From Nitrosopumilus sp. (lineage in GTDB: Archaea; Thermoproteota; Nitrososphaeria; Nitrososphaerales; Nitrosopumilaceae): a DNA stretch of 64,000 nucleotides. The stretch spans positions 704,001-768,000 of the forward strand of contig OZ242041.1 in the NCBI GenBank assembly GCA_965205215.1. The letters run 5' to 3'. The notes beneath the pieces were generated by a model. It worked only from the letters and a program-made list of their open reading frames with translations. It did not search any database and was not told where the DNA came from. The position numbers were made by a program, and so were the translations under genes. This document shows positions 47,295 through 55,668 of the stretch, piece by piece (position 1 is the stretch's first letter; each line of letters opens with the position of its first letter).

Positions 47295-47453
47295 GGACGT
47301 ATCCTCTTTTTGCATGCATGAATTTCTAGCTTCTTTGGCCGTTTCATCTGCAACCGTCGCCGGCCGGCCGACAGGAACTTGGGTAGGCAGCTGCCGTGCG
47401 CAAGGGCCGGCCTCCACTCAAGATTTAAATGGATTTTGGCAGCGTCTGCCCTT

Positions 47454-47528
47454 GGGCTCATAGTCCAGCTCGGTTATGACGTCGCCCTTACACGGCGAAG
47501 ATCCGGGGTTCAAATCCCCGTGGGCCCA
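47454..47528 (+). tRNA. tRNA-Val(TAC)
   Basis: GGGCTCA/TGGGCCC acceptor, TCGCC-CTTACAC-GGCGA anticodon arm, GGTTCAAATCC T arm; TTTAAAT upstream. Confidence 0.96.
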
Positions 47529-47768
47529 TTTCTGCCTTGTTTGAATCGGTTTTAATTCGAACTTTGCCGCCTAAACCCGTGCCTGTCAACGTATAGGTTG
47601 GGGATGATTTAACATTTAACCCTGCTGGTTGAGTTCAAATTACTTCCGATTCAAACTCTGCAAGGTATGGATTCAATAACACACGTATAGAGGAAGGTCG
47701 GACATCGACGCGGGCGGAATTTATATAGATACTTGCTAAATCTTTTATTCTACCGATGTACACAGCAC

Positions 47769-48566: not shown

Positions 48567-48984
48567 AACAGCTGTCATCACGCGCCTCTTTCCCATCCGA
48601 CGTGTCCAGATGGTGTCTGCAGGATGAACGGTTTTTGCAATACCATCAGACTCACTGATCCTGTTCCGTCTCTATGCTTCATACTGATTGACTGTCGGTA
48701 CGTAGAAAGCCGCCGATGCCTACCAAGATTTGCTATCCTGAACGTTAGTAGTGGCAGGCAGAGATCCACTGCGTCGAGAATCAACCGTAGCGGTATAGGA
48801 CATCTGACACAGGATACCAACGCCGGTACTGCTTCCAAGTCGTGATATAGACACGCCCTGATTCCGATGAGAATCGGGGAACCCCCGGCAGGGTATGCTA
48901 ACGATCCAAGCGCTGTCGTCCCTCTTGTCTGAATTTCAGAGAAGATCGCGATTCCCATACCTAGAATCCATATCACGAATTGGA

Positions 48985-49207
48985 AGCGGTACCTGGCCTG
49001 CCGGGCTGCATCGGAGCCGTCAAGCGAGCTGCGCCCTCCTGCCAGGAACTTCTCCTTCCACATGTATACCGTCCTCGGCACTAGGTTGTACTGGCGGCAC
49101 AGCTCGGCCACGCTGGTCTCCGGATTGAACGTCTGAAGGATTATCCGGATCTTCTCGTCCGTACTCCGTCTTGTCTTCTTGTCTGTCATGTTCCGTATCG
49201 CCTCCAC
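48985..49207 (-). pseudogene. Truncated IS3-family transposase OrfA (HTH)
   Basis: RRSTDEKIRII...SVAELCRQYNL....YMWKEKFLAGG; similarity stops after about 70 aa; no OrfB. Confidence 0.75.
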
Positions 49208-49274: not shown

Positions 49275-51239
49275 ATGCAGGCTGTATCCGGACTCATGCC
49301 AAGATCGTACTATTCTTGTGAGCTGTCAAAGTTTCTGGACGATGACAGAGGAGTTATACTGGAAACGATACTTGGCAACGATATTTTTGAGCCAGACAAG
49401 AAGCAGATCGCCGCATGGAAGGAGCAGATCGACATATTGAAAGATCAGCTTTGTGATCTGGGGTCGGGCCGAATCATGTTCGAGTATTCCATACCCAGAA
49501 TGGGCAAGAGAGTGGATAACGTCCTGATCTATTCAGACTTTGTCTTTGTGATGGAGTTCAAGGTGAACAAGACGGTGTATCAGAAACAAGATGAGGATCA
49601 GTGCATTGACTACGCGCTAGATCTCAAGAACTTTCATGAAGCAAGCCACTGCGCATCGATAGTACCGATCCTTGTGTCAACAAAAGCCGGCGCAGCAGAT
49701 CCCGCTGGGATTGGAAAGTGCAGCGATGGGGTGTACGATCTCGCACGGACAAACAAGGACGGCATAACTTGCGTCATAAGACACGTCAGTGACGAAGCGC
49801 CCGGCTGCAGAATCGCCGTCTCGGATTGGGAACGCTCTAGGTACAGCCCCACCCCTACAATTACGGAGGCCGCCACTGCACTGTGCAGCAACATCTCGGG
49901 ACTTGATGGCATAACCCGTTCTGATGATGACACAAAAAACCTGAGCGTCACCGCGGGCGCCGTCGCCGAGATAATCGAGGAATCAAAGAGGAACAGGGCA
50001 AAGTCAATCTGTTTTATCACGGGGGTTCCGGGATCTGGCAAGACGCTGGCCGCGCTCAACGTAGTGTGCGACAGGCTGAATCGAAAGGATGAGCGGGCCG
50101 TGCTGCTGTCGGGCAACAAGACGCTTGTAGACGTCCTCCGAGAGTCGCTTAGGAGGGGCGTGGACTGCATGGAGCAGTATGGCGGTACTGCGGCAGCGGC
50201 CTCGCTCATACAGCATATTCCGACGTTCAGGGACGCGATAGCAGACGACAGAGCGCCTCCCGAGAAGATCGTCGTATTTGATGAGGCGCAGAGGGCCTGG
50301 TCGGCCGAAAAGCTCTCCAAGAATGACAGGATCAAGGGAAAGGCGCGTCAGGGAAAGTCGGATCCGGAGCTGCTGATCGGCGCGATGGACAGGCACGACG
50401 ACTGGGCAGTCGTAGTGTGCCTGATCGGAGAAGGACAGGAGATCCATGACGGGGAGGTCGGACTGTCTGGGTGGATCGAGGCCGTAAAAGAGGGGTATCC
50501 GGAGTGGCGTGTATATCACCCAAGCGAGATCAAGGACCGCGCATATCTGGGCGGAGTAGCTCCAGAACTGCTGAATAACGTAGATCACAGGACGCGCGCC
50601 GGCCTGCACTTGGGCATGTCGATCCGATCCTTCCGGGGCGAGATGCTTGCGGACTTGATCAGGGAGGTTCTGGACTGCCGGATAGAGAGGGCACAAAGCA
50701 TCTGGAAGGAGCTGGCAGGTCGGTACCCGATTGTAGTAACGCGCGATATTGACAGTGCAAAACGGTGGGTCAGGGACAGAGCGCGCGGAACCGAGAGGTA
50801 CGGCATCGTTGCAAGCTCCGGAGCCAAGAGGCTGAAGCCGTACGGGATATACGTGAGATCCAAAATCGAGCCCACGAAGTGGTTTCTGGCAGGTAAAGAC
50901 GATCTGCGCTCCTCATATTACATGGAAGACACTGCTACGGAATTCGAGATACAGGGCCTTGAGCTGGACTGGGTTTGCCTCGCGTGGGACGCAAACCTAA
51001 GATATGACAATGGTGGGTGGTTGCACCGTACATTCTACGGACGGGACTGGAGGCCAATCCGCCAAGAAAGGGATCGATTGCATCTGGTCAACGCATACAG
51101 GGTGTTACTGACTAGGGCCAGACAGGGGATAGTCATATTTGTGCCGAAGGGGGACGACGAGGACGCCACACGAAGATCCGAGTTCTATGACGGGACGTAT
51201 GGATTCCTCAGAAAGATCGGGTTCGATGAGATTGCGTGA
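49275..51239 (+). CDS. DUF2075 / Schlafen group 3-like helicase with N-terminal nuclease-like domain
   Basis: RVD...MEFK, GVPGSGKT, VFDEAQRAW, TEFEIQGLELDW, NAYRVLLTRARQG. Confidence 0.88.
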   Translation: MQAVSGLMPRSYYSCELSKFLDDDRGVILETILGNDIFEPDKKQIAAWKEQIDILKDQLCDLGSGRIMFEYSIPRMGKRVDNVLIYSDFVFVMEFKVNKTVYQKQDEDQCIDYALDLKNFHEASHCASIVPILVSTKAGAADPAGIGKCSDGVYDLARTNKDGITCVIRHVSDEAPGCRIAVSDWERSRYSPTPTITEAATALCSNISGLDGITRSDDDTKNLSVTAGAVAEIIEESKRNRAKSICFITGVPGSGKTLAALNVVCDRLNRKDERAVLLSGNKTLVDVLRESLRRGVDCMEQYGGTAAAASLIQHIPTFRDAIADDRAPPEKIVVFDEAQRAWSAEKLSKNDRIKGKARQGKSDPELLIGAMDRHDDWAVVVCLIGEGQEIHDGEVGLSGWIEAVKEGYPEWRVYHPSEIKDRAYLGGVAPELLNNVDHRTRAGLHLGMSIRSFRGEMLADLIREVLDCRIERAQSIWKELAGRYPIVVTRDIDSAKRWVRDRARGTERYGIVASSGAKRLKPYGIYVRSKIEPTKWFLAGKDDLRSSYYMEDTATEFEIQGLELDWVCLAWDANLRYDNGGWLHRTFYGRDWRPIRQERDRLHLVNAYRVLLTRARQGIVIFVPKGDDEDATRRSEFYDGTYGFLRKIGFDEIA

Positions 51240-51532
51240 CGCGAACCGCCTGGAATGTGTCTGCGCAGACGTGATCTGGTAAAGACCCCTCAAATTGATA
51301 ACCTTGCTCCAAAACCTCCGTTTTCCATCCAGAACATCTCTACTATGCGGATTGCCTCTCTCTAGTACCGCTTGCATACGAAGCGTATTCTGATCGAGAT
51401 TACTCTGCTCCTTCCCTTAGTCACCCCGTGGCCCCCTACTGGTGCAAATTTGTTTCCATTCAGGTGGTCTCAATGTGGCGGGATCCAACCACGCGGCACA
51501 GATCTGCATGCGAGACGCGGCAGGTTGCCTGC

Positions 51533-52285
51533 TCACGTTATGTTTGCCGGCAGATCCGACAGCTTCCTGATCCGTGATTCGTCTGCAAACCTGTCGTCCT
51601 TGACCCTGTCGGGCACGTACAGGAATATTCCGTGATCAACGATGTTCTGAGCCACCCTGTTGGACAGTACCTCGTTCTGCAGGATTGTCAGCAGGTGAAT
51701 AATCTGGCCCTGGTTGTGGAGGAACAAACGCCGCCTCCATCGATCCCGCAGCGACGTCTTCAGGGACAGGAAGTGCGTTCTGTCGGGCGACGCGACGGCA
51801 GTCTCCCTGTCGGGTATGACAAGGTCTATCCTGTTCAGCCCGGCCCTTTTACCCCCCCGGGTCACGCGCTCGCTTGGTATTCCAATGATGTGGAGCAGCT
51901 CCTGCACTATGGCTTCGAAGCTGCTTCCGGCCCTGGATGATCGTGACTGGCTAAGGCTCTTCTCCATCCTGATGGCTTCCGTGACTGCCGTCCTGAACAT
52001 CTCATGTGCCTCTTCTCTGCCAAGGGAACTGCTCCATTTTGATAGAAACGTTTCCTCTGCAAAGGAGTTGATCGTGTTTTCCTCGTACCTCTTGTACGTC
52101 TCATACGTCACGCTGAACACCTTCTCCAAAGCATCCGAAAAGTGGCTTCTGACAAAGTCGGGCTTCAGCATTTCAGGGCTATCCCTATGGATCTGTTCTA
52201 TGGACTCGAGTATGATCTCAGACGTACTTGGAATGTCTGTCTTGGCGGCCAATATCCACCCTTCTACAAGCATGCCTATAAGCAA
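51533..52285 (-). CDS. EcoRII-C-like type II restriction endonuclease, active site disrupted by micro-inversion
   Basis: SRSSRAGSSFE, RIDLVIP, LKTSLRDRW, HLLT; start may be TTG 52252. Confidence 0.8.
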   Translation of the reverse strand: MLIGMLVEGWILAAKTDIPSTSEIILESIEQIHRDSPEMLKPDFVRSHFSDALEKVFSVTYETYKRYEENTINSFAEETFLSKWSSSLGREEAHEMFRTAVTEAIRMEKSLSQSRSSRAGSSFEAIVQELLHIIGIPSERVTRGGKRAGLNRIDLVIPDRETAVASPDRTHFLSLKTSLRDRWRRRLFLHNQGQIIHLLTILQNEVLSNRVAQNIVDHGIFLYVPDRVKDDRFADESRIRKLSDLPANIT

Positions 52286-52504
52286 TTCATCCGGGTTGCA
52301 GTTCTACCATGCCTGTGGCAACAGGCGCTTCCGAGATATGCCACGATCCCCGTCCATTACGTCTTTTGTCCAACGAAGTCGAGGCATGATCCGGATTACC
52401 CGCATTGCATTCTGGTCTTGGATAGCGCTGCATGACGCGTAATGCAGCTATTAGATGCCGCGTTCCGCATCTCTTTATTATGGTGTGTGGCAGAAGTGGT
52501 TGCG

Positions 52505-52921
52505 TTGACGGACGTGTTTACGCCGGAGAAGCGCTCGTGGGTCATGTCAAGGATCAGGGGCAAGTGGACTGGAATAGACCTGAAGATGAGAGAAATCTTG
52601 GCCGGTATGGGCACGCGGTTTGAGATGTATCCGAGCATGCTGGGGAATCCGGACTTTGCGCATCGCCAGATGAGAATAGCCGTGTTCTGCGACGGGGACT
52701 TTTGGCACGGATACCTCTACCGACATGGGAAAGTTCCTAGGCAAGCGTTCTGGAGGGAGAAGATTCTAAGAAATATGAAGCGTGATCGCTACGTCACCGG
52801 AAAGCTGCGACGCGAGGGATGGTCCGTGCTGCGGTTCTGGGAGCATGACATAAACTCCAATCCTGAGAAATGTGCTCGGAAGGTTAAAAAAAAGATTGCA
52901 GAACGGCGCCATGTGCGATAG
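52505..52921 (+). CDS. vsr: Very short patch repair endonuclease
   Basis: DVFTPEKRSWVMSRIR, GNPDF, FCDGDFWHG, FWREKILRNMKRD, GWSVLRFWEH. Confidence 0.93.
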   Translation: MTDVFTPEKRSWVMSRIRGKWTGIDLKMREILAGMGTRFEMYPSMLGNPDFAHRQMRIAVFCDGDFWHGYLYRHGKVPRQAFWREKILRNMKRDRYVTGKLRREGWSVLRFWEHDINSNPEKCARKVKKKIAERRHVR

Positions 52922-54342: not shown

Positions 54343-55668
54343 CAGTCAACGCAAATGTGACTCGAACAAGCCCTCCGGCAGGTCTGGCGGGGGCTTCGGC
54401 TCGAGGGTCGGATCGGTGAGAAGGTTGTGGAGGGCCCCTGCAAACTCCCCCCACTTGAGGTCGGGGGCGTTTGCGGTTCCCATCAGGAGGTACGCCCGGG
54501 ACATCAGGGCCCTGGCGATTATCCACGCGTCGTAAAAGAGGCACGTGTACATGAAGCAGAACATCCGGGCCGCCGGGGCCCTGCACCGCGTCTTTGCATT
54601 GCCCTGTTCAAGCAGCCTGTATCCGGTCTCTATGTTCCACCGCCGCCCGTACCTGTCGGGGTCCGCGTCCGGCACGTTGGTGGCAAACGCGATGTACCTT
54701 TCCTCCGGCGGCTCCGGGTACGGCGCGTGTTTTTTCCTGCGCCTCCTCTCCGTTATTACGGCCCAGTACGTGGCCGTGCGCCCCCCGCCGCCCTCGCTTA
54801 TCTCCAGCTCCGACACGCGGTGCCTGGCCCTTCTCGAGTACTGCCCCAGCGCGTCCACGACGGTGTCGGTGTTCCTGCACGGGATCAGGAACCGTATCCC
54901 GTTTTCGCTGAGGTACCTTATCACCCCCGTGTTGAAGAACTCGCGGTCCATCATGACGAGGCCGATCTCGACCCCCACGCGGCCGCATATGTGAATTAAC
55001 TCAGGCACGAAGTCGGGGGTGGACTGGAGCTTGCGCACCGGAACCACCCCGAGCACGAGCTTTTCCCCGTTGACGACGCACTGAGCCGTGGCATATCCCT
55101 CGAACCTGTCGGTCCCGTTCCTTGGCTTTTTGCGCACCAGTTCGGGGCCGTCCCTCTTGTCGTATCTCTCCCTGTAGTGAAAGTCGATTGCAATGTCGAC
55201 GGGCCCGCTGAACAGTCCCATCGCCTTCATGCGGTCCACGTACATCCCCGTGTCCCTTATGAACAGCTCGCGCAGGCTCACGCCGTCGACGGCCCTCATC
55301 CACTGCATCATTCGCTCGCCGCACGGCAGGGCGCGCGCACCGGGCTGCCCGACGTTGGTGCCGTTCCTGTCCATCGCGATGGAGGTCACGTTGCGATTCC
55401 TCATGCACGCCTCGTACATGACAAAGTCCATGTCCTCCTTGCCGTAGAGTGCGTTGTACCTGCTCGAGAATGGCAGCGCGCTTGACAGGTCCCCCAGCTG
55501 CAGGCTACGCAAAATAGATTGATATATCGCGTAACCCCGCGCAGATCGTCTTAGGCGGCTTTTCTTCAATTCGCAATCAGCCGCCTTAAGACGTCACATA
55601 TAGATCTTTTTCATATGCGCGCATTATAGCCTTGCGCCCCCTCTCTTGGGGCACATTTGCGTTGACTG
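54343..55668 (-). mobile_element. ISH3-family (IS4-like) insertion sequence, 1326 bp
   Basis: Perfect 17-bp TIR CAGTCAACGCAAATGTG; 5-bp TSD TCTTG at 54338-42 and 55669-73. Confidence 0.93.
54346..55569 (-). CDS. DDE transposase
   Basis: IAIDFH, MDREFF, YGRRWNIETGYR (YREK-like); stop inside the TIR. Confidence 0.92.
   Translation of the reverse strand: MKKSRLRRSARGYAIYQSILRSLQLGDLSSALPFSSRYNALYGKEDMDFVMYEACMRNRNVTSIAMDRNGTNVGQPGARALPCGERMMQWMRAVDGVSLRELFIRDTGMYVDRMKAMGLFSGPVDIAIDFHYRERYDKRDGPELVRKKPRNGTDRFEGYATAQCVVNGEKLVLGVVPVRKLQSTPDFVPELIHICGRVGVEIGLVMMDREFFNTGVIRYLSENGIRFLIPCRNTDTVVDALGQYSRRARHRVSELEISEGGGGRTATYWAVITERRRRKKHAPYPEPPEERYIAFATNVPDADPDRYGRRWNIETGYRLLEQGNAKTRCRAPAARMFCFMYTCLFYDAWIIARALMSRAYLLMGTANAPDLKWGEFAGALHNLLTDPTLEPKPPPDLPEGLFESHLR

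Follow-up and report, generated by a model that had tools for sequence, protein, structure and literature searches.

The 64,000-nt window analyzed here (positions 704,001 to 768,000 of contig OZ242041.1 of Nitrosopumilus sp.) carries a gene for a predicted restriction endonuclease (hereafter R), in which a short segment of the helix past the catalytic lysine has been inverted in place, and, upstream of it, a divergent gene of a very-short-patch repair endonuclease (vsr) (Table 1). The R product matched the Pfam family PF09019 (EcoRII-C) with 54 bits (cut-off 25) over residues 92-239, and its sequence matches in the PDB (E-values from 6e-06 to 7.5e-05) included PspGI (6e-06), Ecl18kI (1.1e-05) and EcoRII-C (2.5e-05). 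The same three enzymes (3bm3, 2gb7/2fqz and 3hqg) were the best Foldseek matches (E-values of 3e-11 to 6e-09, template modelling (TM) scores of 0.66-0.79) of an AlphaFold model, which was built with 40 aligned sequences and reached a mean predicted local distance difference test (pLDDT) score of 85.1. Because of these Pfam, PDB sequence and fold matches, the protein is assigned to the PspGI-like, single-domain type II restriction endonucleases (CCNGG/CCWGG class); PspGI, too, is a single domain of about 250 amino acids.

The catalytic set of this family (E...D...K...E) consists of Glu271/Asp299/Lys324/Glu337 in EcoRII (PMC2770665) and of Glu105, Asp138, Lys160 and Glu173 in PspGI, in which each Glu binds one metal ion (PMC2577326). 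Recognition of CC:GG is accomplished by Gln94/Arg164/Glu165/Arg166 in PspGI (PMC2577326), and the recognition triad of EcoRII is Lys328-Asp329-Arg330 (PMC2770665). The window protein shares with PspGI, Ecl18kI and EcoRII-C the fold, the recognition Gln and the K-x3-R-(D/E)-R-W recognition helix (Q113, and R180, D181 and R182 as the R/K-(D/E)-R triad at K+4 to K+6), as well as the catalytic E, D and K (E124, D154 and K176). It differs from these enzymes at K+13 (position 189), which is Leu, since the Glu and the acidic helix around it are replaced by the reverse-complement reading RRLFLHN; moreover, the gene adjoins no methyltransferase and belongs to an archaeal, sponge-associated host. Judged by its sequence, the protein is, by descent and fold, a catalytically incomplete member of the EcoRII-C/PspGI/Ecl18kI group.

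The window gene reads K176-TSLRDRWR-RRLFLHNQ-GQIIH, while the plus strand of 51710-51733 reads LVVEEQTP. Both readings had been given in a preliminary description of this DNA and were confirmed when the open reading frame (ORF) was translated. A homologue search, in which 39 of 525 candidates were kept at E <= 0.001, yielded an alignment of 40 rows including the window. The canonical form, KTSL(R/K)ERW(R/K)-(E/Q/L)VVEEQTQ-GQRTH or close variants of it, was found in 34 rows and the inverted form, RRLFLH(N/D)(Q/R) followed by (G/S)Q(I/M/V)IH, in the remaining six (the window, P0001-P0004 and P0008); thus, the survey of homologues proposed in the preliminary description revealed the same RRLFLH-type block in five relatives. 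The alignment is free of gaps at the block, and the protein length is unchanged by the inversion. In the K+13 column, Glu is present in 30 rows, Asp in two and Gln in two, while Leu occurs exclusively in the six inverted rows; a Glu stands 13 residues past the catalytic Lys in all three solved enzymes (PspGI, Ecl18kI and EcoRII). The alignment, the PDB matches and the published active sites (PMC2770665, PMC2577326) therefore bear out the earlier observation that the Glu at K+13 is now Leu. Since 34 of the 40 rows and all three outgroup structures are canonical, the canonical orientation is ancestral and the window form derived.

At the DNA level, the contigs of four public runs (X1, X10, X4 and X2) were compared with window positions 51300-52500. 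The X10 contigs showed no difference to the window and those of X1 showed four, the window block being present in both. The X4 contigs are ~9% diverged, and one of them (5575 nt) extends across the block; neither G>C nor T>G is among the types of change that they show. Since at least six G>C changes and one T>G would be required for a canonical block, X4 is inverted as well. The contigs of X2, a sponge-metagenome relative, are ~10% diverged and break exactly at the block, with the loose ends CGTCCTCTGGCCCTGCGTCTG behind 51697 and TCCTCCACAACCTC before 51734, which in the gene sense give QTQGQRT and EVVE plus GA (the first two letters of the next codon), that is, the canonical form. When the 23 known letters of X2 were considered, the reverse complement of the window block matched 19 of them and the native block 10; within the 18-nt core (codons 186-191), these values were 16 and 6 of 17 known letters, respectively.

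As a control for chance, a profile was made of the 34 canonical rows and each in-place flip of the gene was scored against it. The native window protein scored 367.3 bits, and only two of the 243 eight-codon flips raised this value, one by 15.5 bits (at codon 185) and the other, in the adjacent position, by 0.4 bits; the expectation that the flipped version should fit the homologues better was thereby borne out. The best of all flips tried was the 6-codon flip of codons 186-191 (+17.6 bits). It had also been pointed out that both orientations are free of stop codons, which is true but uninformative, as the same holds for 216 of the 243 eight-codon flips.

The extent of the inverted segment differs from that given in the preliminary description, in which exactly 24 nt (eight codons) were assumed to be flipped: codon 192 is CAG in both forms and codon 185 is two letters off. 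A 24-nt flip would be exact only if the ancestral block had carried Leu and Pro as its terminal residues, and such ends occur in some distant homologues (L013 and L015) and in none of the seven closest canonical relatives (the nearest complete canonical DNA, L004, shows 73% amino-acid identity). The bases flanking the core, 51712 and 51731, are ambiguous, being a self-complementary G...C pair; as regards microhomology or short inverted-repeat arms at the switch points, only this 1-nt ambiguity was seen. Codon 185, next to the core, encodes Arg in all six inverted rows and Glu, Leu or Gln in all 34 canonical ones; under an exact 20-nt flip it would need two further changes, and under a 22-nt copy shifted by 2 nt, one. 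Read in this way, 18 nt are certainly inverted, and the event was either a flip in place of 18-20 nt or a 22-nt copy displaced by 2 nt. Two short motifs named earlier, a CCTGG at the left junction and the pair TGGAGG/CCTCCA, are indeed present; the pair does not flank the block, one of its arms lying within it, and comparison with canonical DNA, where the inner copy is oriented like the outer one, indicates that the pair was itself made by the inversion. The junction CCTGG was also created by the inversion and is probably coincidental.

Table 1. Positions in the window of the R gene, its inverted segment and neighbouring features.
Feature	Position	Strand	Basis or remark
Restriction endonuclease gene R (predicted), 250 codons/aa, single domain, inverted allele	51533..52285	-	ORF, Pfam, PDB and fold
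Micro-inversion core, 18 nt, codons 186-191, RLFLHN (ancestrally VVEEQT)	51713..51730	-	X2 letters and profile gain
Codon 189, CTC, Leu at the catalytic-Glu position (Lys176 + 13)	51719..51721	-	alignment and active-site lists
Junction codon 185, CGG, Arg (GAG, Glu, in close canonical DNA)	51731..51733	-	X2 loose end
Codons 195-196, ATT ATT, Ile-Ile (Arg-Thr in the canonical form)	51698..51703	-	X2 loose end and alignment
Codon 181, GAT, Asp, middle of the R-(D/E)-R recognition triad	51743..51745	-	Glu in the 7 closest canonical relatives
Codon 176, catalytic Lys	51758..51760	-	column invariant in alignment
6-nt inverted pair TGGAGG/CCTCCA, 11-nt spacer	51717..51739 (arms 51717-51722, 51734-51739)	.	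inverted-pair search
CCTGG site across the junction (canonical loose end there, CCCTGC)	51709..51713	.	sequence
vsr gene, divergent, upstream of R	52442..52921	+	Pfam Vsr, 67.6 bits
Spacer 3' of R, slot of the C5-methyltransferase in related loci	51240..51532	.	no trace of methyltransferase
DUF2075/Schlafen group 3 helicase gene, 654 aa, convergent with R, in the methyltransferase slot	49275-51239		230.6 bits
Transposase helix-turn-helix (HTH) fragment, flanking the helicase gene	48578-49207		
DDE transposase gene	54346-55569		
tRNA-Val gene, nearest tRNA to the stretch 51000-51540	47453-47529		

In the inverted form, R-RLFLHN stands in place of the acidic stretch E-VVEEQT, with the loss of the metal-binding Glu at K+13 and of two neighbouring glutamates (Glu at K+9, K+12 and K+13 being replaced by Arg, Phe and Leu, respectively). 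E124, D154, K176, Gln113 and the R180-D181-R182 triad are kept in all inverted rows. In the window model, which retains the fold, residues 181-190 had a mean pLDDT of 59 and formed a five-residue helix, while the matching stretch of the canonical P0007, modelled with the same 40 sequences, reached mean values of 82 and 81 with a seven-residue helix; this contrast is only a hint, as such models are insensitive to point changes. Taken together, the residues lost and kept suggest that the window protein is most likely nuclease-dead or severely impaired, and that it probably still folds and retains binding to its site.

The vsr gene upstream of R encodes a protein that scored 96.5 bits against TIGR00632, just below the cut-off of 97.85. 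A divergent vsr was found within about 130 nt of R in eight related loci, 5 kb away in L006 and as a weak match in L019. The order in the related loci is vsr (divergent), R and a C5-methyltransferase directly downstream of R. Of the 11 closer loci with downstream sequence, eight (L004, L009-L014 and L016) have the methyltransferase behind R, and three (L005, L006 and L015), all with canonical R genes, lack it in this position. No C5-methyltransferase was found in the window by tblastn, and the similarity to L004 stops at about window position 51497, ~39 nt beyond the R stop codon (blastn). The genome encodes two C5-methyltransferases, at C1:613-619 kb, about 137-141 kb from R, and the one at C1:613-614 kb (141 kb away, on the same strand) is 80% identical to that of L004. 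Positions 51000-51540 have no second copy in the genome and contain no tRNA, and no sign of a repeat-mediated loss of the methyltransferase was seen there. In the preliminary description, the inversion was proposed to have detoxified the enzyme after methyltransferase loss. The absence of the methyltransferase from the locus holds; against the rest of this proposal stand the homologue 141 kb away and the existence of canonical R genes that adjoin no methyltransferase. The proposal is thus only partly supported: the enzyme may have been inactivated once its partner methylase was lost, and methylation may persist at these sites of the genome. CCWGG had an observed/expected ratio of 0.76-0.77, which is uninformative, as the control GGWCC gave 0.79-0.83.

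Ten alignment columns separate the six inverted rows from seven close canonical ones, and all of them fall within residues 181-196. Four of the ten lie outside the inverted core (E181D, E185R, R195I/M/V and T196I); at residues 195 and 196, respectively, the inverted rows have I/M/V and I, and the canonical ones R/K/G and T/F. A maximum likelihood (ML) tree calculated without the block columns placed 12 close sequences in one clade (support 99/98), the inside of which lacked resolution. The approximately unbiased (AU) test did not reject the monophyly of the inverted rows (p = 0.294). The N-terminal thirds of the window and P0003 sequences are nearest to the canonical P0005/P0006 and those of P0002 and P0004 to the canonical P0007. 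In the region of the block, P0002 and P0003 form a group with the window, and in the middle segment P0004 and P0008 are nearest to canonical rows. As the N-terminal parts are nearest to different canonical alleles, the lack of monophyly in the ML tree is attributed to recombination. We infer one origin of the inverted allele followed by recombination among alleles, though recurrent events could also be envisaged. A search of 60 other genomes from the same genus and order gave no homologue of the R gene; the relatives that it does have stem from sponge metagenomes and from archaea of the Nitrosopumilaceae type. To judge from these sequences, inverted and active-looking alleles coexist in sponge-associated Nitrosopumilaceae-like archaea.

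The explanation that we consider likely is that of one historical in-place inversion, which left an impaired endonuclease likely still able to bind and an inherited, recombining allele, and which marks a stage in the decay or domestication of a restriction-modification (R-M) system. According to this explanation, a single event, most likely a replication template switch or the misrepair of a break, would have inverted about 18-22 nt in the helix past the catalytic lysine, the frame being kept because an in-place inversion keeps the length. The inverted allele would then have been inherited and gained the four linked replacements, and recombination would have placed it in differing backgrounds of this gene. 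Because the inverted R sits beside vsr without its methyltransferase, a stage of R-M decay or domestication is suggested. Several results weigh against this explanation. Whatever the model of the inversion, codon 185 must have undergone one or two additional substitutions. The ML tree does not unite the inverted rows and requires three changes, and none of 200 bootstrap trees accommodated them with a single change. The test for selection on the inverted gene (given below) is borderline, and the X4 differences shown are all common to the canonical X2. In a neutral simulation, 21-50% of genes stayed stop-free at 9-18% amino-acid divergence. Finally, the loss of cleavage is deduced from homology, and the superfamily has known cases of re-sited catalytic residues, reportedly the subject of a 2002 paper by Tamulaitis, 'Alternative arrangements of catalytic residues'.

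A first rival explanation, that the block is an assembly or sequencing artefact, which had been named earlier as a possible outcome, or a chance resemblance, is refuted, and nothing was found in its favour: diverged alleles (82-91% identity) drawn from ENA, Logan and JGI contain the inverted form, as do contigs of runs X1, X10 and X4, which belong to three studies, the core agrees with the canonical reverse complement in nearly every known letter of X2, and the gain in profile score is unique among the 243 flips. The preliminary description also considered an ON/OFF switch, i.e. a programmed intragenic inverton toggling nuclease and binding-only forms (phase variation). Such a switch would account for the presence of both orientations among close relatives and for the scattering of the inverted rows in the ML tree, and prokaryotes are known to possess intragenic invertons that recode a protein (bioRxiv 10.1101/2023.03.11.532203). 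It is nonetheless extremely improbable, because none of the nine inverted pairs found in 51600-51850 brackets 51710-51733, no recombinase gene is located in the window, and the replacements at 181, 185, 195 and 196, being outside the inverted core and fully associated with orientation, would not toggle with a flip. In the genome, searched for the two families PF00239 and PF00589, serine recombinases (PF00239) gave no match and tyrosine recombinases (PF00589) four, all far outside the window. In addition, a single orientation was found in each run (inverted in X1, X10 and X4, canonical in the two strain contigs of X2), although contigs drop minority variants. The inverted block is thus best read as a fixed historical allele, and the one-off template switch preferred in the preliminary description, which had likewise stressed the absence of long flanking inverted repeats, fits the lack of such repeats and of a nearby recombinase as well as the locked flanking substitutions. 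Very unlikely, too, is a still active nuclease, operating with another acidic residue or by a one-metal mechanism. In its favour, no inverted row has lost E124, D154 or K176, P0008 has an Asp at position 191, and relocated catalytic residues are known from the wider CCGG family. On the other side, five of the six inverted rows have no acidic residue in the block, three glutamates are replaced by Arg, Phe and Leu, and a solitary active enzyme would need the distant methyltransferase to share its specificity.

A rival that we would not favour, but that deserves serious consideration, is an inert relic: with the enzyme killed by the inversion, the gene would now be a pseudogene in decay and devoid of function, its intactness resulting only from limited time and from the reporting of open frames by gene callers. 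This would agree with the methyltransferase missing from the locus, the insertion sequence (IS) and transposase genes nearby, the lack of homologues in the 60 other genomes, the proportion of genes left stop-free in the neutral simulation (owing to which intact ORFs are weak evidence of selection) and the finding that degraded restriction enzymes are common intermediates of R-M decay (PMC3424554). It is countered by the five diverged inverted alleles other than the window, which all encode full-length proteins, and by a search for shorter homologues, which gave a single hit, a canonical one, and no truncated inverted allele. The remaining catalytic and recognition residues are also intact in all inverted rows, and the protein branches are not longer than the canonical ones (hand-summed root-to-tip lengths in the 12-row clade of 0.07-0.12 for inverted and 0.03-0.20 for canonical rows). 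Furthermore, there is a synonymous excess among the visible differences (40 rows out of 162): 11 of the 19 visible differences in the gene that distinguish X4 from the window are synonymous, against 34% expected with neutral transitions (p = 0.029, omega about 0.38), and between the canonical X2 and the window, 23 of 36 (omega about 0.29). These data provide modest evidence of purifying selection on the inverted gene. The opposite extreme, for which we see some room but which is rather doubtful, would be a domesticated, nuclease-dead, sequence-specific CCWGG/CCNGG binder, whose helix was refitted by the linked changes and whose OFF allele is kept circulating through recombination by selection, next to active alleles, in sponge-symbiont archaea. 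If so, the protein may sit on or protect the sites of Vsr repair or weaken the attack of related incoming R-M systems, and three metal-binding glutamates would have given way to an arginine-rich hydrophobic stretch in one step.

The inversion can be compared with several known systems. Short template-switch mutations and inversions of the spacer between inverted repeats (IR-spacer inversions), which produce adjacent changes from one event in coding DNA, are known from yeast and human genomes (Abraham & Hazkani-Covo 2021, PMC8604942; reportedly also Loytynoja & Goldman 2017, PMC5453318). The window gene resembles these cases in that a cluster of adjacent changes, with several neighbouring replacements and no frameshift, would stem from one copy of the opposite strand. 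It differs in the number of neighbouring residues changed (six to seven, as against up to five in the human and yeast cases), in being archaeal and in affecting a catalytic helix; moreover, unlike these cases, its segment lacks clear inverted-repeat arms and the allele has been maintained in strains that have diverged. Intragenic invertons of the recoding type (bioRxiv 10.1101/2023.03.11.532203) are similar in that the inversion lies wholly within a gene and recodes the protein without a stop codon, but, as described there, they have flanking inverted repeats, site-specific recombinases and both orientations in each population, none of which was found for the window block, the orientations being judged from contigs. 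Among degraded restriction genes and orphan methyltransferases, exemplified by E. coli Dcm-Vsr relative to EcoRII (Seshasayee et al. 2012, PMC3424554), decay has likewise gone part of the way with the nuclease inactivated, and, as in the Dcm-Vsr case, vsr and a homologous C5-methyltransferase remain in the window genome. In contrast to the degraded restriction genes described in that source, which show a frameshift, a stop codon or general divergence, the R gene has an in-frame micro-inversion, an unusual lesion, and, unlike in the Dcm-Vsr case, it stays beside vsr while the methyltransferase is located elsewhere with a different neighbour.

A literature search for prokaryotic in-frame micro-inversions and degraded restriction genes, whose coverage excluded most subscription journals, returned no equivalent case. 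The decay of R genes and short template-switch inversions (in yeast and human) are already known, while a prokaryotic catalytic helix rewritten by one in-frame micro-inversion, in an allele that persists, recombines and collects linked changes across strains, was not met in the literature searched. Through such an event, a toxic nuclease would become in a single step a protein that is full-length, foldable and probably DNA-binding, which is relevant to the disarming or domestication of R-M systems. The case also implies that clusters of adjacent amino-acid changes resembling rapid adaptation or misalignment can be one inversion, which annotation and dN/dS pipelines misread. The active-looking and inverted alleles constitute a natural pair for biochemical comparison, and the interest of the system would rise if the inverted protein is a maintained binding-only derivative.

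Several further features were recorded around R and the methyltransferases. The slot of the methyltransferase downstream of R is taken by a convergent helicase gene, which, together with the transposase fragment flanking it, suggests a rearranged defence island. Within the spacer, at window positions 51423-51504, a stretch of ~40-80 nt had a contig depth of about 350-2400 in sponge metagenomes, compared with 35-100 for the gene; the contigs diverge on both sides of it and it is single-copy in the genome, so it may be a short element common to other abundant organisms in the samples. A Nitrosopumilus chromosome (genome G062, L006 6001-6708) carries a canonical R with Glu at K+13 and no adjoining methyltransferase, and the family methyltransferase query gave no match in that genome; this is apparently, by sequence, a solitary, intact-looking restriction gene.

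The 80%-identical C5-methyltransferase of the window genome belongs to a second vsr-linked cluster on the minus strand (L026 7402-10413, G000:C1:613402-616413), composed of vsr2 (146 aa), a 367-aa ORF and the methyltransferase gene. The 367-aa ORF occupies the restriction-gene slot, has no Pfam match and is unrelated to the window R by BLAST; it may encode an undescribed nuclease. Immediately after the second C5-methyltransferase (356 aa) comes a protein of 663 aa with a HATPase_c_3 match (GHKL-type ATPase; L026 12221-15263, G000:C1:618221-621263), and a 770-aa HATPase_c_3 protein is encoded near the R gene in L006 as well, which may reflect a defence-island pairing. Near the methyltransferases, at G000:C1:621757-622373, an ORF is composed of tandem 17-residue units (ARAPAQHGHRHSTGTGT).

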